Made by a program: the position numbers and the translations under genes
Part shown: one piece after another, positions 1-6,095 of the stretch
Layout: every line of letters begins with the position of its first letter
Numbering within the stretch: the stretch's first letter is position 1
Notes under the pieces: model-generated
What the model was told of the DNA's origin: nothing
The model's input: the letters and a program-made list of their open reading frames with translations, nothing else
Database searches by the model: none
From: a virus
Taxonomy: Duplodnaviria; Heunggongvirae; Uroviricota; Caudoviricetes
Virus record (IMG/VR): IMGVR_UViG_2744054675_000004
Coordinates: 1-6,095 of that record
DNA: 6,095 nucleotides
Strand: one strand, 5' to 3'

Positions 1-205
1 TTTCATGTCGTGCATTGTTTGCAATGATTTTTGCTTCATAAGCAGAAATTACGTCATCTTCATGAATATCTTTCAGAAAGCTGGTGTCAAGACGTTGTAC
101 TATTTCAGCGTTCATTGATCGCTTATTGGCTTTTGCAGAAATTTCTATTTTTTCTTTTACTTCGACGGGAAGTCTGATCCTTAGTTGTGGATCTTCTCTG
201 CTCAT
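1..205 (-). CDS. mnt: Mnt-like ribbon-helix-helix repressor, 3' end runs off the window (partial)
   Basis: Minus-strand ATG at 205..203 opens a frame with no stop before position 1; it is absent from the ORF track because it is incomplete. Translation starts MSREDPQLRIRLPVEVKEKIEISAKANKRSMNAEIVQRLDTSFLKD, which matches my recollection of the P22 Mnt N-terminus (MARDDPHFNFRMPMEVREKLKFRAEANGRSMNSELLQIV). It is divergent from the arc/ant genes, as in P22 immI. Confidence 0.7.
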   Translation of the reverse strand, partial: MSREDPQLRIRLPVEVKEKIEISAKANKRSMNAEIVQRLDTSFLKDIHEDDVISAYEAKIIANNARHE

Positions 206-251
206 GTTCTTCACCAAATATTGAGTTACTTGCAATGATTGAAGTATGCCT

Positions 252-311
252 CACCGTGTGCTTGACATCAATGACGCACGGTGTGACAATTATTTTGCCC
301 CACGGTGGGGC
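252..311. promoter_or_regulatory. Divergent mnt / arc-ant control region: candidate sigma70 promoter and RHH operator palindromes
   Basis: TTGACA at 262-267, a 17-nt spacer, then GACAAT at 285-290 (plus strand, reading toward arc). Palindromic heptamers CACCGTG at 252-258 and CACGGTG at 277-283 and 301-307, the last inside the 15-bp near-perfect palindrome GCCCCACGGTGGGGC at 297-311. The CCACGGTGG core matches my recollection of the P22 mnt operator. Confidence 0.45.
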
Positions 312-325
312 TAAGGAGATATGAA

Positions 326-493
326 ATGCAAAAAGCAAAAGAGATGTGTCAACGACGAGTTCGTTTTCCGGACGATGTGAAGTTAGCTATTGAAAGAAAT
401 GGCGAAAAAGAATGCCGAAAGTTCAATACAGAGATTATCTATCAGCTGAGGAAAGTGTATGGACTCACTGGTGAGAAGAATAGCGTGGCATAA
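326..493 (+). CDS. arc: Arc-like small ribbon-helix-helix repressor (55 aa)
   Basis: ATG at 326 preceded by AAGGAG at 313-318. The ORF track starts this frame at an upstream GTG (305), but the ATG with the Shine-Dalgarno is the likelier start. Product MQKAKEMCQRRVRFPDDVKLAIERNGEKECRKFNTEIIYQLRKVYG... has the size and the basic beta-strand-then-helix pattern of P22 Arc, and sits first in the ant operon as in P22. Confidence 0.65.
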   Translation: MQKAKEMCQRRVRFPDDVKLAIERNGEKECRKFNTEIIYQLRKVYGLTGEKNSVA

Positions 494-503
494 AACAGCG
501 AAG

Positions 504-514
504 CCCCACGGTGG
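504..514. promoter_or_regulatory. Second CCCCACGGTGG copy in the arc-ant intergenic region (candidate operator or RNA structure)
   Basis: CCCCACGGTGG at 504-514 repeats the core of the 297-311 palindrome. It lies between the arc stop (493) and the ant ribosome-binding site (AGGA at 553-556). Confidence 0.3.
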
Positions 515-565
515 CCAGACCGTCAGGGCTTCAGTATCGTAAAACTACGTATAGGAATTAACGAC

Positions 566-1504
566 ATGACGAGTATAGCAACAGCAGTATCTACTATCAA
601 CGTGCCATTCCACGGCGCAGAGCTTTATGTTGTCAATCACAACGGCGAACCGTATACCCCAATGAAACCTATCGTTGAGGGAATGGGGCTAGACTGGAAA
701 TCTCAACATAAGAAGATTTCTCAACGCTTCTCGAAGGGTATGGTGGAAATCACCATACCTTCTGCCGGTGGGGTGCAAGCCATGATTTGTATGGCTTTAC
801 GAAAATTGGCAGCTTGGTTGAACAGCATCAGCCCTAACAAAGTCCGCCCTGAAATCCGCGACAAGGTAATCCAGTATCAGGAAGAGTGTGACGATGTGCT
901 CTACGAGTACTGGACTAAAGGCCATGTGGTTAACCCACGCAAAGCTAAAAAGGCGTTGCCGGGTAAAATAACAACTGAACAGCAGGAAGCCATTAAACAA
1001 CTCGTCATGAGTCGCGGTCAGTCTCTGCCAAAAGAAAAACAGGCTAAGGCGATGATCACCATGTGGTCGTCACTGAAATCTCATTTTGGCTGTTCGTACA
1101 AAGAAATTGGTGAAGATCAATTTGCCGAAGCGTTGTCTCTTGTTGCTCGGGTTCCGCTTGAAGGGGAGTATCTCCCTGCTGGATCTGCATCAGAGAATGA
1201 TGAAGTGGCAGTCAAGATGTTAGATGCGCTTCGTGAGGCAATTAAAACACAGACAAAATGTTATGGTTATCCATTGAAGCCAGGCTACCGCAGTCTGATT
1301 CATTCGCCGTCGGGTGTTCTCGGCCTGACGGAGAACTCACTGCTGATGAATCTGCTGAACCAGTTACAGGAAGACGGGCACGATGTATCGGGCGCGGCGG
1401 CGGAGCTGACCACCATGTTCTGCTACATCGTTGGTGTGAGCAAATGCCTGCGTGATATCCAGACGCACGCGGAATACATCAACGACAAGGCAGGGTTCTT
1501 CTGA
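566..1504 (+). CDS. ant: Phage antirepressor (Ant-type N-terminal domain plus conserved C-terminal module), 312 aa
   Basis: Complete ORF in the track. It sits immediately downstream of the arc-like gene in the same orientation (immI synteny). The N-terminal region (VPFHGAELYVVNHNGEPYTPMKPIVEGMGLDWKSQHKKI...) resembles AntA/P22-Ant type antirepressor N-domains from memory. The C-terminal ~75 aa are near-identical to the C-terminus of the 2560..3255 protein. Confidence 0.8.
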   Translation: MTSIATAVSTINVPFHGAELYVVNHNGEPYTPMKPIVEGMGLDWKSQHKKISQRFSKGMVEITIPSAGGVQAMICMALRKLAAWLNSISPNKVRPEIRDKVIQYQEECDDVLYEYWTKGHVVNPRKAKKALPGKITTEQQEAIKQLVMSRGQSLPKEKQAKAMITMWSSLKSHFGCSYKEIGEDQFAEALSLVARVPLEGEYLPAGSASENDEVAVKMLDALREAIKTQTKCYGYPLKPGYRSLIHSPSGVLGLTENSLLMNLLNQLQEDGHDVSGAAAELTTMFCYIVGVSKCLRDIQTHAEYINDKAGFF

Positions 1505-1530
1505 CAGAACGGCGGCACAGGGACGTGCAA
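1277..1530. repeat. Left arm of an inverted repeat (3' end of ant plus ~25 bp downstream)
   Basis: Manual alignment with the reverse complement of 2536-2787 gives about 11 mismatches over ~230 coding nt (~95%). Similarity continues past the stop codon through GGCACAGGGA(C/T)GTGC. Confidence 0.85.
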
Positions 1531-1554
1531 AACGAAACTAGCGTGACATGTCAC

Positions 1555-1580
1555 AGGCCGCTTTCGCGGCCTTGTTTTTA
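1555..1580 (+). terminator. Rho-independent terminator candidate after ant
   Basis: Stem AGGCCGC (1555-1561), loop TTTC, stem GCGGCCT (1566-1572), followed by TGTTTTTA. Confidence 0.55.
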
Positions 1581-1739
1581 ACGAATGCCACCGCCGCCAG
1601 GGCGGGAATCCGCAGAACGCCCACCGCAGCGGGAGCCGTCAGCAGCAGTGTCGCTGTCGTGCTGACAACGACCGGCAAAGGCCTGAGTTGAAGCTACCAG
1701 AGACAATAAAACGAACAGTGCAGCAAATGCTTTTTTCAT
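1578..1739 (-). CDS. Hypothetical small secreted peptide (53-aa precursor with predicted signal peptide)
   Basis: Internal ATG of the track ORF 1578..1811. Product MKKAFAALFVLLSLVASTQAFA|GRCQHDSDTAADGSRCGGRSADSRPGGGGIR has a textbook N-terminal signal peptide with an AxA cleavage motif and a 31-aa, two-cysteine, Gly/Arg-rich mature part. The ribosome-binding site is weak (GGAAA), and the frame is GC-rich and could be fortuitous. Confidence 0.3.
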   Translation of the reverse strand: MKKAFAALFVLLSLVASTQAFAGRCQHDSDTAADGSRCGGRSADSRPGGGGIR

Positions 1740-1816
1740 TGTGAAATTTCCATCTATAAGCCACCTCAATGTGGCGTCAATGAGTGTAGCACTGACTTTT
1801 GTTTCGTCCACAAAAA

Positions 1817-1833
1817 AGCCCGCAGCGCGGGCT
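1817..1833 (-). terminator. Rho-independent terminator ending the minus-strand cargo operon
   Basis: On the minus strand: AGCCCGC, loop GCT, GCGGGCT, then TTTTTTG. The hairpin overlaps the TAG stop at 1834..1832. It is A-tract-flanked on the other side, so it may act bidirectionally. Confidence 0.65.
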
Positions 1834-2272
1834 ATTCTTCTTCATCATTAAAAAGCGGATTGTTGTTTCCATCTGATGAAAGGAAAGGTATGTGTTCTCT
1901 TGAAAATCCAACAATGACAATTTCATTATCATTTTTTGCATAATGAATGCATTCATTAGAATGCCTTCCGCCAGGGTTGAAATTTAAGTTAATGGTATAA
2001 TTCTTAAATGTGTTTGGATACCATGTTGGCCCACAATGATAATGCCAATAATTCTCTTGCTCATAATTGTCTGAGCCGGGAATTTTATCATGGTTATCAT
2101 CAACCCACGAGGGCTTGTTTTTTCCAACAAGCGCCCTTCCATTGGCAACATCCTCTAAAAAACTTTGTATGATTTTTATTTCATCATCAGTAAGGAAAGG
2201 TCCGTCTACAGCGAAAGGGGTGTTGCTTTCCCCATGTAGAAAACTATTAGATATTCTAATGTTAAACTTCAA
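1832..2272 (-). CDS. Hypothetical acidic protein, 146 aa, no recognised family
   Basis: This is the 3' 146 codons of the track ORF 1832..2413. I propose a TTG start at 2272..2270 preceded by AGGAG at 2283..2279, because the first 47 codons of the long form overlap the upstream 55-aa gene in another frame and look non-protein-like (W/R-rich). Product MKFNIRISNSFLHGESNTPFAVDGPFLTDDEIKIIQSFLEDVANGRALVGKNKPSWVDDNHDKIPGSDNYEQENYWHYHCGPTWYPNTFKNY...SREHIPFLSSDGNNNPLFNDEEE. The region is AT-rich and net acidic with an acidic tail. Confidence 0.5.
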   Translation of the reverse strand: MKFNIRISNSFLHGESNTPFAVDGPFLTDDEIKIIQSFLEDVANGRALVGKNKPSWVDDNHDKIPGSDNYEQENYWHYHCGPTWYPNTFKNYTINLNFNPGGRHSNECIHYAKNDNEIVIVGFSREHIPFLSSDGNNNPLFNDEEE

Positions 2273-2292
2273 GGAAAACTCCTGATGTGCTT

Positions 2293-2460
2293 CTATTTGG
2301 AGCGAAATGCCGCCTTGAAGTCGCTGAAAGATGTTCCTGTCTGGTAAACCATATCCTTGTCGCGCTCTTTGCTTGCGCGGCCAAGCATAACTTTTCCAAT
2401 GACATCCCAGCATTGCTTGGCTTGTTTATTGTGCTGAGTACGATTTTTCAACGCTGTCAT
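2293..2460 (-). CDS. Hypothetical small basic protein, 55 aa, first gene of the cargo operon
   Basis: Not in the ORF track (below its size cut-off). ATG at 2460..2458 with a strong Shine-Dalgarno (minus-strand AAAGGAGG, 6-nt spacer), stop TAG at 2295..2293. Product MTALKNRTQHNKQAKQCWDVIGKVMLGRASKERDKDMVYQTGTSFSDFKAAFRSK is net basic. Confidence 0.5.
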   Translation of the reverse strand: MTALKNRTQHNKQAKQCWDVIGKVMLGRASKERDKDMVYQTGTSFSDFKAAFRSK

Positions 2461-2472
2461 ATCGCGCCTCCT

Positions 2473-2515
2473 TTACCTTTAAGGTAATAGTACGCTATTC
2501 ACCCACAGTCTGCAA
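2473..2515 (-). promoter_or_regulatory. Candidate sigma70 promoter with overlapping TTACC-N5-GGTAA operator (site 1) for the cargo operon
   Basis: Minus strand reads TTGCAG (plus 2515..2510), 17 nt, TACTAT (2492..2487). Palindrome TTACC-TTTAA-GGTAA at 2473-2487 abuts the -10 and the Shine-Dalgarno. Confidence 0.4.
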
Positions 2516-2535
2516 TCTGTACAGAATTATTTAAA

Positions 2536-2787
2536 GGCACATCCCTGTGCCACCGCCCGTCAGAAGAACCCTGCTTTGTCGTTGATGTACTCCGCGTGCG
2601 TCTGGATATCACGCAGGCATTTGCTCACACCGACGATGTAGCAGAACATGGTGGTCAGCTCCGCCGCCGCGCCCGATACATCGTGCCCGTCGTCCTGTAA
2701 CTGGTTCAGCAGATTCATCAGCAGTGAGTTTTCCGTCAGGCCGAGAACACCAGACGGCGAGTGAATCAGGCTACGGTAGCCGGGCTT
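2536..2787. repeat. Right arm of the inverted repeat (3' end of the Bro-N antirepressor gene plus ~25 bp downstream)
   Basis: Reverse complement aligns to 1277-1530; see left arm. Confidence 0.85.
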
Positions 2788-3255
2788 CAGCGGGGCGCTG
2801 TAGGTTTTGTTCTCTATCTTCATCGCCTGCATTACTGCTGACGCCGTGGCGTTGGCTACCTGGTCGGCAACCATCTTTATGCGTTCTTCCTGCGGGAGCG
2901 AGTTTTTAATGTAACTTCCGGTGCGGCGGATCTGAGGAAGAACCTCACCTGTAACCCATTTACGAAAGCGGTAGGGGATAGTGCCTGGTGTCACCGCATC
3001 GCGGCAGCGGAGGATCAGTGTGTAGAGGCCTGACTCGGAGATGATGATCGATTCTTGCTCACCGCCAGGGGTGTCGGTTGAAGCGACGCCCTTCTCATCA
3101 TCATCAAGTTTTCGAACAGCATCTCGATGGTTTGCTATGCCTATAGCCCGACAAACATCTGAAGCGATAAACCATGGCTCACCATTAATGACGATTACCC
3201 GTATATCGGCTTGGGATTCGAAAGAAAAAATGGACGTGCTTTTTGTAGCTGTCAT
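2560..3255 (-). CDS. Bro-N-domain antirepressor-like protein sharing the Ant C-terminal module, 231 aa
   Basis: Complete ORF in the track. The N-terminus (FESQADIRVIVINGEPWFIASDVCRAIGIANHRDAVRKLDDDEKGV ... FRKWVTGEVLPQIRRTGSY) fits the Bro-N domain signature from memory. The C-terminal 75 aa (KPGYRSLIHSPSGVLGLTENSLLMNLLNQLQDDGHDVSGAAAELTTMFCYIVGVSKCLRDIQTHAEYINDKAGFF) differ from the 566..1504 protein at a single residue (E/D). Confidence 0.8.
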   Translation of the reverse strand: MTATKSTSIFSFESQADIRVIVINGEPWFIASDVCRAIGIANHRDAVRKLDDDEKGVASTDTPGGEQESIIISESGLYTLILRCRDAVTPGTIPYRFRKWVTGEVLPQIRRTGSYIKNSLPQEERIKMVADQVANATASAVMQAMKIENKTYSAPLKPGYRSLIHSPSGVLGLTENSLLMNLLNQLQDDGHDVSGAAAELTTMFCYIVGVSKCLRDIQTHAEYINDKAGFF

Positions 3256-3451
3256 AGTGGTTACCTTTTAGTCTGGTTAATCACCACTACCGACGCCAAT
3301 CGGTTGGTGGTGAACTGTGCAGGGTTGGCGTAACCGGCTAAAAGGACCCGGCGCACCTTTCGGTGCCCCCACACAGCCCACCATAATACGAATGTGGCCG
3401 TGCTATACGCATAAAAAAACCGCTTGCGCGGTGAATGCGCCTTTTAGTAAT

Positions 3452-3489
3452 CCGGGACGCCAATCCCGGCACTGGATTTTTCCAGTGCC
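3452..3489. other. Tandem perfect hairpins in the divergent intergenic region
   Basis: CCGGGA-CGCCAA-TCCCGG (3452-3469), immediately followed by GGCACTGGA-TTTT-TCCAGTGCC (3468-3489; 9-bp perfect stem). No T-tract follows on either strand. Confidence 0.35.
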
Positions 3490-3524
3490 CGATTACTATG
3501 ACACAAGAGGAGTGCGATGTAAAT

Positions 3525-3539
3525 TTACCGCAAAGGTAA
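3525..3539. promoter_or_regulatory. TTACC-N5-GGTAA palindrome, site 2
   Basis: TTACC-GCAAA-GGTAA, centred about 93 bp upstream of site 3. Confidence 0.4.
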
Positions 3540-3616
3540 TGATAAGCGCGGAGGTATATAAAAATCAACCGTATTTGGTTGGTGGCGTTTAGCGCTTGAT
3601 CACCTGAAAGCAAGAT

Positions 3617-3633
3617 ATTACCTTTAAGGTAAT
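3617..3633. promoter_or_regulatory. TTACC-N5-GGTAA palindrome, site 3, just upstream of the 242-aa gene
   Basis: ATTACC-TTTAA-GGTAAT ends 20 bp before the ATG at 3653. The half-sites and spacer are identical to site 1. Confidence 0.45.
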
Positions 3634-3652
3634 GTTATTGTGAGGAAAAGCA

Positions 3653-4381
3653 ATGGAAGTTTTCTGGATAGTTGTTGGTGTGGTTGCGGTGATTATTTAC
3701 GTTATCAACCAGAACAAGACTAAGATCTCTGATCGTACGGTCGTTAATCATAACAAAACGATAAAGACCGAAGATGGGGAGATAACGATTAATCGTACAC
3801 AGGTGATAGAACACACCTCTACTCAGTTTCAAAAAACTGGAGGTAATGCGCCTAATATTTCCGCACCTCCTGCTTATGATAGTGCGGTAATCCAGACATA
3901 TTATAAACAGCAGGAGTTAGCAAAAGAGAGGCAACTGATTCAGCCAAAGCCGTTTACAGCTGAGCTTCCACCTGGAGTGTCAACGCCTCCGGCATATCAT
4001 GGAAGATTCCCTGGTGATGACATATCGTCTCAGTCATCTAAAAAAGCACCTCAGGCAGTATCAGAGCCAGCAAGAATACCTTCTGTATCGCCGCCAAAAG
4101 AAGAATCAGCTAACAGAGTTTCAAGTGGTAGCAAGCAGTGCTTGCGATGCAGAATAAACCTTCCGTATGAGAAGTTCAGGAAATCGTCAAAAAATCCAGA
4201 TGGATTGACTAAGTGGTGTGCAAGGTGTCTCGATGGCCCAAAGAATACACGTCATATGAAGTGGTGCCCAATTTGTAATGTCCGCAGAAAACGAACCAGC
4301 TTTTACCCTAATAATCAAAATGCGGATGGCTTAATGGCATGGTGTAAAACGTGCTGGGACGAGCACAAAGCGAAACGATAG
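3653..4381 (+). CDS. Hypothetical membrane-anchored protein with a Pro-rich linker and C-terminal tandem CxxC zinc-ribbon repeats, 242 aa
   Basis: Complete ORF in the track, with AGGA 7 nt upstream of the ATG. N-terminal hydrophobic helix EVFWIVVGVVAVIIYVI followed by NQNKTK. Low-complexity middle with two PPAY motifs. C-terminus has C-x2-C ... NPDGLTKWC-x2-C and C-x2-C ... NADGLMAWC-x2-C (8 Cys in 4 CxxC pairs). It is followed directly by a terminator. Confidence 0.65.
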   Translation: MEVFWIVVGVVAVIIYVINQNKTKISDRTVVNHNKTIKTEDGEITINRTQVIEHTSTQFQKTGGNAPNISAPPAYDSAVIQTYYKQQELAKERQLIQPKPFTAELPPGVSTPPAYHGRFPGDDISSQSSKKAPQAVSEPARIPSVSPPKEESANRVSSGSKQCLRCRINLPYEKFRKSSKNPDGLTKWCARCLDGPKNTRHMKWCPICNVRRKRTSFYPNNQNADGLMAWCKTCWDEHKAKR

Positions 4382-4404
4382 GCCGCTCTAGCGGCCTTTT
4401 CTTT
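4381..4404. terminator. Bidirectional rho-independent terminator between convergent genes
   Basis: GGCCGC-TCTA-GCGGCC followed by TTTTCTTT on the plus strand. The same hairpin lies directly after the stop of the minus-strand gene 4403..4660. Confidence 0.65.
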
Positions 4405-4660
4405 ATGTGGTTTGTTTTCGTAATTGTTCGGCACAATAGTCGAGATGTGTTTGCAGATCCTGCATAGACATCTGTGAGCTGGTGACGTAGTTAATCAGTG
4501 CAGTCAGTTCGGCAAGTGGGCCATCGACATTAAATCCATCCTTATCGAGATCCCGGAGTAATTTCATCAAGTGCGATCCCTCCACCAGTGACCTGACGCC
4601 TCCCGGCGTGTGAATCCTTTCGGTAAATCCGTCTTCCAGTGGATAGTGATACTGCTGCAT
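4403..4660 (-). CDS. Stand-alone homolog of the antirepressor C-terminal module, 85 aa; candidate SOS-inducible antirepressor
   Basis: Track ORF 4403..4678 starts at a TTG; the ATG at 4660..4658 with GGAG 8 nt upstream is the likelier start. The product (…HTPGGVRSLVEGSHLMKLLRDLDKDGFNVDGPLAELTALINYVTSSQMSMQDLQTHLDY…) aligns with the C-terminal module of both antirepressors (HSPSGVLGLTENSLLMNLLNQLQEDGHDVSGAAAELTTMFCYIVGVSKCLRDIQTHAEY) at roughly 40-45% identity by eye. A LexA box lies 20 bp upstream. Confidence 0.65.
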   Translation of the reverse strand: MQQYHYPLEDGFTERIHTPGGVRSLVEGSHLMKLLRDLDKDGFNVDGPLAELTALINYVTSSQMSMQDLQTHLDYCAEQLRKQTT

Positions 4661-4679
4661 CTTATCTTCTCCATGCAAT

Positions 4680-4699
4680 AACTGTATATTTATACAGTA
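4680..4699. promoter_or_regulatory. LexA (SOS) box
   Basis: AACTGTATATTTATACAGTA matches the E. coli consensus TACTGTATATATATACAGTA at 18 of 20 positions, with CTGT-N8-ACAG intact. It lies 7 bp upstream of the Shine-Dalgarno of the minus-strand gene 4403..4660. Confidence 0.7.
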
Positions 4700-4735
4700 T
4701 CAAATAATTTGTTTGCTATCCAGCACGTTTTGCAA

Positions 4736-4752
4736 ATTACCCGAAAGGTAAT
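4736..4752. promoter_or_regulatory. TTACC-N5-GGTAA palindrome, site 4
   Basis: ATTACC-CGAAA-GGTAAT in the divergent region between the LexA-boxed small gene and the tailspike gene. Confidence 0.4.
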
Positions 4753-4855
4753 ATCTATTGGTATTTATAGTCTTTCTATCCATATGTGGTTTTTCAGGTA
4801 ATAGAATAACCAGATATGCGGCGCAACGGGTGCTGCGACTATCTGGAGATTTAAC

Positions 4856-6095
4856 ATGACGGTCTCAACCGAAGTTGACCACAACGAATACACTGGTAAC
4901 GGAGCTACGACATCATTTCCGTATACCTTCCGTATTTTCAAAAAAACCGACCTGGTTGTTCAGGTGTCTGACCTGAACGGGAACGTAACAGAATTGGTTC
5001 TGGATACCGGTTATAAGGTAACTGGAGCGGGCACTTATAGTGGCGGTGAAGTGGTTCTCCCGTCGCCGCTTGCTGCTGGCTGGCGAATTACGATAGAGCG
5101 TGTGCTTGATGTGGTGCAGGAGACTGATCTTCGCAATCAGGGAAAATTTTTCCCCGAAGTTCATGAAGATGCATTTGACTACCTGACGATGCTGATCCAG
5201 CGATGTTTTGGGTGGTTCAGACGTGCATTGATGAAACCATCTTTGCTTGCAAAATATTACGATGCAAAGCAAAACAAAATTTCTAACCTTGCAGATCCAT
5301 CATTTGAGCAGGACGCTGTAAATAATCGCTCAATGCGTAATTATGTCGATGCTGCAATCGCCGGGGTTGTTGGTGGTTTTGGTTGGTTTATACCGTCAGG
5401 AAGCGGGGCAAGACAACGAACATTTCAAAGCAAAATGAGGGATATAATTTCTCCTTGTGATTACGAAGATAATATTTTTATGATTAAGGAGTTGATATCC
5501 AAAGGCAAAAATGCCGCTGTTTTTAACTCATATTATACTTTTGTTATTACTGTTGGCGAATGGGGTGATTACCCTACACTCAAAGATGCAATCATTGCAG
5601 CCCAGTCAATGAGGCCTATGTGGGATGGTGGTAATGCTTTCTGCGAAATAAGAATTAAGACCGGGCATATTATCAACTATCAAATTGAATTCAGTTCAGG
5701 TGTTGATTTGTCTTGGATTAAAATAACATCAGAAGACTCAGTGGTTTTCTCTGACACTCGTTTGTTTACTAAAATCGTTAGAACGTATTACGAATACAAG
5801 TATTTATTTTACATTTGCGATGCAGCAAAAAGTCCTGTATTTGCTATTCAGATCGAAGAAAATAGAGATGATAGCGATGTTTGTGCATTTATTGTAACTC
5901 AAAAAGCTGAACTTAATTTCTATCCGTATTCAGGTGCTCGAAAGTTCTACGTTGGAATTCATGGTAGTTTTGGTGCAAAAATTAGTGCATATCATACCGG
6001 ATGTGCTCCTGATGAGGAAAGTGTTGCTGCATATATGCCAGAAGGGTATTACGTATGTGATTTTTCTTATAGCAGATACTCTTCCCTGCAACTGG
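4856..6095 (+). CDS. Tailspike / tail fiber protein, 5' part (runs off the window)
   Basis: ATG at 4856 with GGAG 7 nt upstream; open to the window end (absent from the track because there is no stop). The N-terminus (EYTGNGATTSFPYTFRIFKKTDLVVQV ... QNKISNLADPSFEQDAVNNRSMRNYVDAAIAG) resembles the T7 gp17-type tail-fiber N-terminal particle-binding domain from memory. The downstream AT-rich part contains GDYPTLKDAI, reminiscent of the P22 tailspike motif SDYPTLQDA at the start of its beta-helix. Confidence 0.8.
   Translation, partial: MTVSTEVDHNEYTGNGATTSFPYTFRIFKKTDLVVQVSDLNGNVTELVLDTGYKVTGAGTYSGGEVVLPSPLAAGWRITIERVLDVVQETDLRNQGKFFPEVHEDAFDYLTMLIQRCFGWFRRALMKPSLLAKYYDAKQNKISNLADPSFEQDAVNNRSMRNYVDAAIAGVVGGFGWFIPSGSGARQRTFQSKMRDIISPCDYEDNIFMIKELISKGKNAAVFNSYYTFVITVGEWGDYPTLKDAIIAAQSMRPMWDGGNAFCEIRIKTGHIINYQIEFSSGVDLSWIKITSEDSVVFSDTRLFTKIVRTYYEYKYLFYICDAAKSPVFAIQIEENRDDSDVCAFIVTQKAELNFYPYSGARKFYVGIHGSFGAKISAYHTGCAPDEESVAAYMPEGYYVCDFSYSRYSSLQL

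Follow-up and report, generated by a model that had tools for sequence, protein, structure and literature searches.

The DNA analysed here is a stretch of 6,095 nt (positions 1 to 6,095 of the IMG/VR record IMGVR_UViG_2744054675_000004; the whole stretch is referred to below as the window) that forms part of an epsilon15/phiV10-like (Uetakevirus) prophage of Escherichia coli. Its minus strand carries a gene for a basic protein of 55 amino acids (aa), followed after a spacing of 20 nt by a gene for an acidic 146-aa protein, and both are annotated in RefSeq as coding sequences for hypothetical proteins, with an identical start for the 146-aa protein (WP_000671199.1). We argue that this pair is probably a toxin-antitoxin-like module whose larger member has a RelE/ParE-superfamily fold, and that it lies as exchangeable cargo in a slot whose regulatory ends belong to the phage. 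The features of the pair and of its immediate surroundings are as follows (pI, isoelectric point).

1810-1833, minus strand: intrinsic terminator, stem-loop AGCCCGC-GCT-GCGGGCT, and left junction of the exchangeable cargo
1832-2272, minus strand: gene for the 146-aa acidic protein (TTG start, pI 4.9), predicted RelE/ParE-superfamily fold, putative toxin
1984-2142, minus strand: segment (codons 44-97 of the 146-aa gene; MN187550 6498-6656) lost in a published mutant, 'delta-orf10', of phage phiv142-3
2279-2283, minus strand: Shine-Dalgarno sequence AGGAG of the 146-aa gene, 6 nt ahead of the TTG, as read from the sequence
2293-2460, minus strand: gene for the 55-aa basic protein (ATG start, pI 10.1), putative antitoxin
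2467-2473, minus strand: Shine-Dalgarno sequence AAGGAGG of the 55-aa gene, 6 nt ahead of the ATG, as read from the sequence
2473-2487, no strand: palindrome TTACCTTAAAGGTAA, a copy of TTACC-N5-GGTAA, and right junction of the cargo
2487-2515, minus strand: candidate promoter, with -35 TTGCAG (2510-2515), a 17-nt spacer and -10 TACTAT (2487-2492)
2526-2553: alternative promoter GTGGCA-16-AATAAT found by a scanning program (9/12 consensus match)
1818-2472: slot as compared with sibling prophages L002 (4818-5687) and L137 (3334-4029)

Much of what the original prediction had read at this locus stands. It described a minus-strand pair of a small basic and a larger acidic protein, the latter with an HYHCGP motif (here WHYHCGP) and an acidic C-terminal tail (NDEEE), and the calculated pI values agree with this; the strong Shine-Dalgarno sequence is present, and the intrinsic terminator is canonical, with a stem (1817-1833) of 7 bp with 6 GC pairs and a loop of 3, followed by T6 (tail TTTTTTGTGG), with the stem-loop overlapping the TAG stop codon of the 146-aa gene. 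Both ORFs are real genes under purifying selection; relative to homologues from Pectobacterium, Serratia, Erwinia, Proteus and Klebsiella, synonymous divergence is saturated in both (pS 0.7-0.9) and non-synonymous divergence is 0.24-0.45 (pN). In the 10 sequences compared, which comprise the window gene and nine homologues, frame 0 alone is open. A longer, 193-aa form of the large protein, which had been named beforehand as a reading that would count against the pair, is rejected: three homologues have an in-frame stop 2-4 codons 5' of the TTG or GTG start, and the long form is therefore impossible in them, and the N-termini of the family align at MKF/MKI, except for three members with longer called N-termini. 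A TTG or GTG start is found in four of the six loci compared (window 2270-2272 and loci L003, L011 and L013), which points to a conserved weak initiation of the 146-aa gene relative to its upstream partner.

Recurrence of the pair at other loci had been proposed as a check, and the pair indeed recurs: prophage accessory slots, 3-kb plasmids and gaps between chromosomal housekeeping genes all carry it. Homologues of the 146-aa protein number 34 by a word-indexed search and 118 representative clusters by an exhaustive profile search (E-value <=0.001), of which 103 representatives were used for the conservation and family scans described below. A small upstream homologue is present at the Pectobacterium, Serratia, Erwinia, Proteus, Klebsiella, Pasteurellaceae and Neisseriaceae loci, and at all but three of the loci examined the two genes are adjacent (overlapping, or separated by no more than about 30 nt); of these three, one (L157) is a false positive, ribosomal protein L13, and two (L153 and L156) are weak matches with an upstream ORF that is not recognizably related. 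The cassette is 99.9% identical to that of phage phiv142-3 (MN187550; Uetakevirus according to NCBI). At least some part of the 6-kb window is matched in 1359 of 5426 complete E. coli genomes; the cassette is carried by 77 of them, with both genes together in all 77. This distribution, and a content of 35.6% GC in the 146-aa gene (46.4% in the 55-aa gene, 48.8% in the neighbouring ant and 53.3% in bro), agree with the predicted AT-rich, horizontally exchanged accessory cassette.

The pair is also present on 37 plasmid records, mostly cryptic plasmids of 2.7-4.6 kb, from E. coli, Salmonella, Citrobacter, Klebsiella, Edwardsiella, Providencia and Aeromonas. One plasmid of 2,959 bp encodes, besides the pair, only an annotated helix-turn-helix protein, presumably its replication protein, and the partner is unannotated there; NZ_CP032420 is among the plasmids of this length. 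In Erwinia the pair lies between accA and a gene of the IF-2B family (Pfam); on a short sequencing-run contig it adjoins glpX, the homologue being most similar to those of Pasteurellaceae; a lambdoid nin region and a P22-like remnant each contain it; and in Serratia and Pectobacterium phages it adjoins Bro/KilA antirepressors. The family as a whole extends over prophages, tiny cryptic plasmids and the chromosomes of Enterobacterales, Pasteurellaceae, Aeromonas, Vibrio and Neisseriaceae. This mobility is the pattern expected of a toxin-antitoxin addiction module, and the arrangement is that of a type II operon, with a small upstream partner and a pair kept across unrelated contexts.

The assignment of the 146-aa protein depends on its predicted structure. 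Neither protein has a match in Pfam, NCBIfam or PADLOC, and the 146-aa protein matches none of the curated RelE, ParE, YoeB, YafQ, HigB, YafO and BrnT models; in PHROGs it belongs to phrog_5954 and its partner to phrog_8607, both of unknown function, and literature searches by accession numbers and PHROG-style identifiers found no papers. Among PDB sequences the family profile matched nothing but a cytochrome c555 trimer, through a helix, and this match is spurious. The AlphaFold2 model built from a 30-sequence alignment, however, has a mean predicted local distance difference test score (pLDDT) of 93.4 and a predicted template-modelling score of 0.88, and shows a compact alpha/beta fold that can be superposed on the solved structures of RelE, YoeB, YafQ, HigB and ParE. 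The BFVD viral fold library gave nothing meaningful for the model. When the family was aligned by hhalign with a profile of four YoeB sequences, query residues 3-124 fell on YoeB 1-81 with a P-value of 0.002-0.005, a match that is weak, and made to a protein picked after the fold result, but nonetheless concordant: GKNKPS is placed on YoeB GKGKPE, the last strand on the last strand of YoeB, and H127 no more than one residue from His83/Tyr84.

Residues G50, K51, N52, K53, S55, W56, W76, H77, Y78, H79, Y111, S124 and H127 are invariant or nearly so; across the 103 representatives H79 never varies, and conservation is 90% or higher at G50, N52, K53, S55, H77, Y78, Y111 and H127. The conserved Lys, His and Tyr residues are located in the predicted RelE-like core strands or just past the last of them, and we infer that they form an RNase-type active site. 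On the strength of the model, the 146-aa protein is taken to be a divergent member of the RelE/ParE fold superfamily, with motifs closest to those of YoeB, RelE and YafQ, and the superfamily would thereby gain a family, of 118 representative clusters, that is missed by current annotation libraries. The original prediction could assign neither protein to a family and proposed profile and structure searches: no sequence library assigns either protein, but the 146-aa protein is now placed at the level of fold, and although Pfam, NCBIfam and PADLOC gave no match, Foldseek did return a RelE/ParE ranking, albeit a non-significant one.

The 55-aa partner is far less constant. Its conserved core reads CWD.IGKV(M/I)LGR ... 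Y..G.S..DF..A; across the partner family, conservation is confined to a brief core motif ([AG][DK].V[LMI]L[SG]R) and a C-terminal [ST]..[DE]D[FI] patch, and the N-terminal part is free to vary. The partner has 56 aa in Pectobacterium, 57 in Serratia, 58 in Erwinia, 60-62 in Proteus and on the small plasmids, and 102 in Klebsiella; six partners of 55-102 aa have pI values of 8.8-10.1 and the plasmid partners of 60-62 aa have values of 6.7-9.8. The large proteins of the seven loci measured have a pI of 4.8-5.8. Pfam finds no domain in any of 11 partner variants, and the AlphaFold2 model of the 55-aa protein consists of one long helix and a short one, at low confidence (pLDDT 68); neither Pfam nor the model reveals a ribbon-helix-helix, helix-turn-helix, AbrB or Phd/YefM N-terminal domain of the kind that would serve autoregulation of the operon. 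The 55-aa protein probably folds on its target and lacks a DNA-binding domain. In the partners from Pasteurellaceae, Kingella and Neisseria (L140-L152, L154 and L155) only the short C-terminal motif of the 55-aa protein is kept, and the N-terminus resembles a signal peptide or membrane anchor. Frameshifted variants of the 55-aa gene were considered as natural experiments and set aside, since two of the three look like homopolymer or assembly errors hitting both genes and are uninformative.

Comparison with sibling prophages delimits what is exchanged at this locus. Homology with prophage L002 extends up to window position 1817 and returns at 2472, and with L137 it extends up to 1833 and returns at 2473. 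In place of the pair, L002 carries a basic 108-aa upstream protein and a 170-aa YafO-family toxin (so named by NCBI, its match to Pfam YafO_toxin being sub-threshold with an E-value of 7e-4), and L137 carries a single 210-aa protein of unknown family. The cargo junctions lie at the terminator hairpin on one side and at the palindrome's inner edge on the other, and what is swapped between the prophages is confined to the sequence that runs from the Shine-Dalgarno site to the stop codon. The promoter/operator and terminator are kept under two unrelated cargos, and these regulatory ends therefore belong to the slot; the cassette is thus not self-contained, as had been supposed, and of its description as a moron the deviant composition stands but the promoter and terminator, which stay when the cargo is replaced, do not count as its own. 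The presence of alternative toxin-like cargos in one phage-controlled slot bears on how prophages acquire and regulate accessory genes.

The palindrome at the right junction is a copy of a phage-wide operator-like site and is not private to the cassette. The window contains four copies of TTACC-N5-GGTAA (2473-2487, 3525-3539, 3618-3632 and 4737-4751), compared with 0.01 expected, and the 39-kb genome of phiv142-3 (L136) contains ten (at 4758, 5138, 6153, 23656, 26472, 29902, 29964, 32294, 33006 and 33068), compared with a shuffle mean of 0.03. All of the phiv142-3 copies are intergenic and located at operon starts, including both sides of the gene for a repressor with dual helix-turn-helix architecture: they are found at Bro, the cassette, the 85-aa gene, the structural operon and terminase, at orf38 just 3' of the replication gene orf39, between the Cro-like gene and the repressor, and as a pair directly 3' of the repressor gene before the early-left operon. 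Phages in IMG/VR with 3-7 palindromes per 10 kb have a like layout around a repressor of the same architecture. The operator palindrome of the original prediction is therefore present, but it is one of these ten copies rather than the cassette's own. From this arrangement we infer that the prophage repressor binds the TTACC-N5-GGTAA sites. Overexpression experiments in the sibling phage ZX5 demonstrated the function of its repressor, reported to be identical in sequence to phiv142-3 Orf43 (PMC9782041); the operator sequence was left undefined in that study, and we found no paper that defines TTACC-N5-GGTAA as an operator. An MqsA-type operator was considered and rejected, as ACCT-N3-AGGT occurs in the perfect palindrome copy and not in the other copies.

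The predicted sigma-70 promoter is the weak element of the locus, a consensus match only: the best site of the scanning program agrees at 9/12 positions, and its four sites in the region are not above chance (1.6 +/- 1.5 expected). We think that TTGCAG-17-TACTAT, judged by its sequence, is a better candidate than the scanner's site; it abuts the palindrome, and its geometry (TTGNNN-22 nt-TTACC) matches that of the early-left promoter of phiv142-3 (TTGACA-22 nt-TTACC). The slot promoter carries the general operator of the phage, and it is therefore probably derepression of the prophage, not autoregulation through the pair, that governs transcription of the cargo.

The explanation that we favour, to which we would give a probability of about 60%, is that the pair is a new type II toxin-antitoxin-like module of the RelE/ParE superfamily in which the small partner is of a novel kind, and that it occupies a repressor-gated slot as exchangeable cargo. 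The 146-aa protein would most likely be a ribosome-dependent mRNA endonuclease with an active site drawn from K51/K53, H77/H79, Y111 and H127. The 55-aa protein, translated first off the same transcript, would most likely bind it through the conserved core and C-terminal motif and hold it inactive, and the weak TTG start of the putative toxin would favour an excess of the partner.

Several observations weigh against this explanation. No toxin-family model of Pfam or NCBIfam is matched by the 146-aa protein or by its 30 close or 103 distant homologues; Foldseek ranks RelE/ParE-superfamily proteins first but with E-values of 0.25 or worse; and hhalign against a YafO alignment is not significant (P 0.09-0.11). 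An acidic putative toxin with a basic partner is the reverse of most RelE-type pairs, although the wider family has a median pI of 6.8 and K-12 YafO has one of 7.0, and charge alone is therefore no argument against a toxin. The partner is without a recognizable DNA-binding domain, both by Pfam over the 11 variants and in its modelled helices, and the partners of 160-211 aa in Pasteurellaceae and Neisseriaceae have a hydrophobic N-terminus that is odd for an antitoxin. In one locus (L166, 1451-2078) a 1-nt deletion outside any homopolymer truncates the partner and leaves the 146-aa gene intact; this is a single metagenome-derived assembly, and the deletion could be an assembly error or could mean that even an incomplete partner allows the large protein to be tolerated. 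Finally, the phenotype of a published knockout (serum growth and kps transcripts, described below) is not a classical addiction phenotype.

Among characterized systems the pair most resembles YoeB-YefM and RelE-RelB, in the G-K-x-K-P loop, the Trp strand and the His just after the last strand, all of which align with YoeB, in the small partner gene directly upstream, and in its plasmid, prophage and chromosomal locations. It differs in that the 146-aa protein has no sequence-model match, has a pI of 4.9 instead of a basic one and exceeds those toxins in length by about 60 residues; it is extended at the N-terminus, carries roughly 25 inserted residues (80-107) and ends in an acidic tail. The partner is basic, bears no similarity to RelB or YefM and has no domain of the Phd/YefM or ribbon-helix-helix type. 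With YafO-YafN it shares by eye the succession of a helix, G-[KR]-[ND], xHxH and a terminal P..H, as well as a pI that is not basic (7.0 for K-12 YafO), and a YafO-family toxin with a basic upstream partner fills the identical slot in a sibling prophage. Membership of the YafO family, which was our first guess from this motif pattern and that cargo, is nevertheless rejected: there is no Pfam YafO_toxin match, hhalign gives a P-value of about 0.1, BLASTP against the YafO-family protein of the slot finds nothing of note (E-value 1.3), and the partner is unrelated to YafN. Like the pair, Phd-Doc of phage P1 is a two-gene module of a temperate phage or plasmid with the antitoxin first; an element-stabilizing role is plausible here too, and homologues of the pair are found on tiny plasmids. 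Doc, however, has a Fic/Doc kinase fold rather than a RelE-like one, and its promoter is autoregulated, in contrast to the general phage operator found here.

The 146-aa gene has already been disrupted, under another name. Li et al. (2020; PMC7724020) studied 'orf10' of phiv142-3 for its part in serum resistance and virulence. GenBank Orf10 (QGF19616.1) is a 52-aa ORF nested out of frame in the 146-aa gene, and its frame contains 5-13 stops in each of the 10 sequences compared. The primer arms given in that study match window 2143-2202 (minus strand) and 1924-1983 (plus strand) exactly. What the mutant has lost is therefore the stretch of the 146-aa gene from codon 44 to codon 97, with GKNKPSW and WHYHCG in it. 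The published virulence-associated orf10 is thus to be re-read as a wrongly annotated frame whose knockout hit the motifs of the RelE-fold protein. Relative to the wild type, the mutant grew normally in LB medium, gave a lower yield in chicken serum with about 60% serum survival, had kps transcripts about 2-fold down, and reached loads in blood and heart of 7-8% of wild type (PMC7724020). In the phiv142-3 lysogen the orf10 transcript rose 2^4.12-fold in chicken serum, together with those of orf40 and orf41 (PMC7724020), which are early genes also located behind operator-bearing promoters. The viability of the knockout fits the loss of a toxin, and the joint rise with early genes under operator control agrees with a slot governed by the phage repressor. 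The fragment used for complementation was left undefined (PMC7724020), and the serum phenotype is therefore not yet assignable to a frame.

These data also speak for a rather doubtful alternative, in which the pair is not a growth-arresting addiction module but a prophage-controlled RNA-cleaving or ribosome-binding regulator with its inhibitor or chaperone, switched on at partial derepression and remodelling host expression, either in lysogenic conversion (serum resistance, capsule genes) or in host takeover. The serum induction of the transcript alongside orf40 and orf41 would be in keeping with it, as would the lowered serum growth and survival, kps transcripts and blood and heart loads that follow deletion of codons 44-97, a slot promoter bearing a phage-wide rather than a private operator-like site, and an acidic surface and roughly 25-residue insertion unlike those of classical RelE toxins. 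The effects are modest, however, and come from one published study whose complementation construct is undefined and whose design was built on the wrong reading frame; moreover, the pair is found on 3-kb cryptic plasmids and in chromosomal gaps without a phage or the TTACC palindrome, and a phage-specific regulatory role is therefore not its general function.

A further reading, which we regard as unlikely, would make the slot a general 'socket' for cassette exchange in epsilon15-like phages, with the phage operator at one end and the terminator hairpin at the other, holding interchangeable pairs of RelE-like nuclease and inhibitor under the prophage master repressor, with the present pair a conditional, repressor-gated mRNA interferase and not an addiction or defence system. 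Were this so, the pair would fire only on partial derepression (for example in serum), host translation would be reprogrammed and virulence traits such as capsule expression would be raised.

Many prophage toxin-antitoxin modules serve anti-phage defence, and the pair might accordingly have been selected by the prophage as an effector of abortive infection or of the exclusion of competing phages; its location in a variable accessory slot with alternative cargos would suit such a role, which we nonetheless judge to be quite improbable. PADLOC-DB 2.0 gives no defence-system match for either protein or for the alternative cargos, that is, for none of the three cargos, and assignment to a defence system is rejected on that ground; the operator-bearing promoter also suggests that expression would be low in a stable lysogen, when defence is needed. 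Of the options left open by the original prediction (toxin-antitoxin, abortive infection or anti-defence), the first is favoured by the fold, the paired contexts and the YafO-family pair in the same slot, and the other two have no direct support, PADLOC being negative.

It is very improbable that the roles are reversed or the enzyme dead, such that the small basic protein is the active, toxic or nucleic-acid-binding component and the acidic RelE-fold protein its neutralizer, or else an anti-defence decoy for host antitoxins or ribosomes: the charge pattern (basic small, acidic large), the acidic C-terminal tail kept in the enterobacterial clade and the predicted long basic helix of the partner would agree with this, but conservation is far stronger in the large protein than in its partner, the placement of the core Lys, His and Tyr residues of the large protein points to an enzyme and not to a decoy, a small gene upstream of a fold-bearing toxin is the usual type II order, and partners that vary at the N-terminus (from 55 to 211 aa) and keep only a short motif are a better fit to a neutralizer than to a toxin.

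The remainder of the window is organized around antirepressor genes and their control elements, as follows.

305-493, plus strand: Arc-like gene
497-564, minus strand: Rfam match, sar RNA
566-1504, plus strand: Ant, with P22_AR_N domain
1236-1505, plus strand: left arm of a 270-nt inverted repeat, 3' end of ant
1578-1739, minus strand: 53-aa signal-peptide protein
2559-2828, minus strand: right arm of the 270-nt inverted repeat, 3' end of the Bro-N antirepressor gene
2560-3255, minus strand: Bro-N antirepressor (Bro-N domain match)
3303-3388, minus strand: Rfam match, C4 antisense RNA
3413-3488, minus strand: Rfam match, isrK RNA
3653-4381, plus strand: 242-aa protein
4403-4660, minus strand: 85-aa protein, after which comes the tail fibre/tailspike gene

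The cassette is nested between inverted antirepressor repeats, as originally described; the two arms are 90% complementary over 270 nt and encode the C-terminal domain common to Ant and Bro. The 85-aa protein is a stand-alone copy of this domain (42% identity over 74 residues, E-value 2e-15), and the domain is therefore encoded three times in the window. Rfam matches to C4 antisense RNA and isrK RNA in the leader of the Bro-N antirepressor gene correspond to immI control of the P1 type, and the sar RNA match between the Arc-like gene and ant to immI control of the P22 type; two kinds of antirepressor control are therefore combined in one region. The 53-aa protein has a signal-peptide-like N-terminus and a Gly/Arg-rich tail, its gene is of 57% GC with its own terminator at 1555-1572, and it matches phrog_14503 ('membrane associated protein', moron category). 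It accompanies all three slot cargos, although in L001 its 5' part is lost through a deletion of window 1617-1808. The segment 3548-4402, comprising the 242-aa protein and its own palindrome copy, is absent from phiv142-3; this protein has CxxC pairs and a sub-threshold match to a Stc1-like zinc ribbon. The indel begins at 3548, 8 nt past the second palindrome copy, which suggests gain or loss of cassettes beside operator copies.

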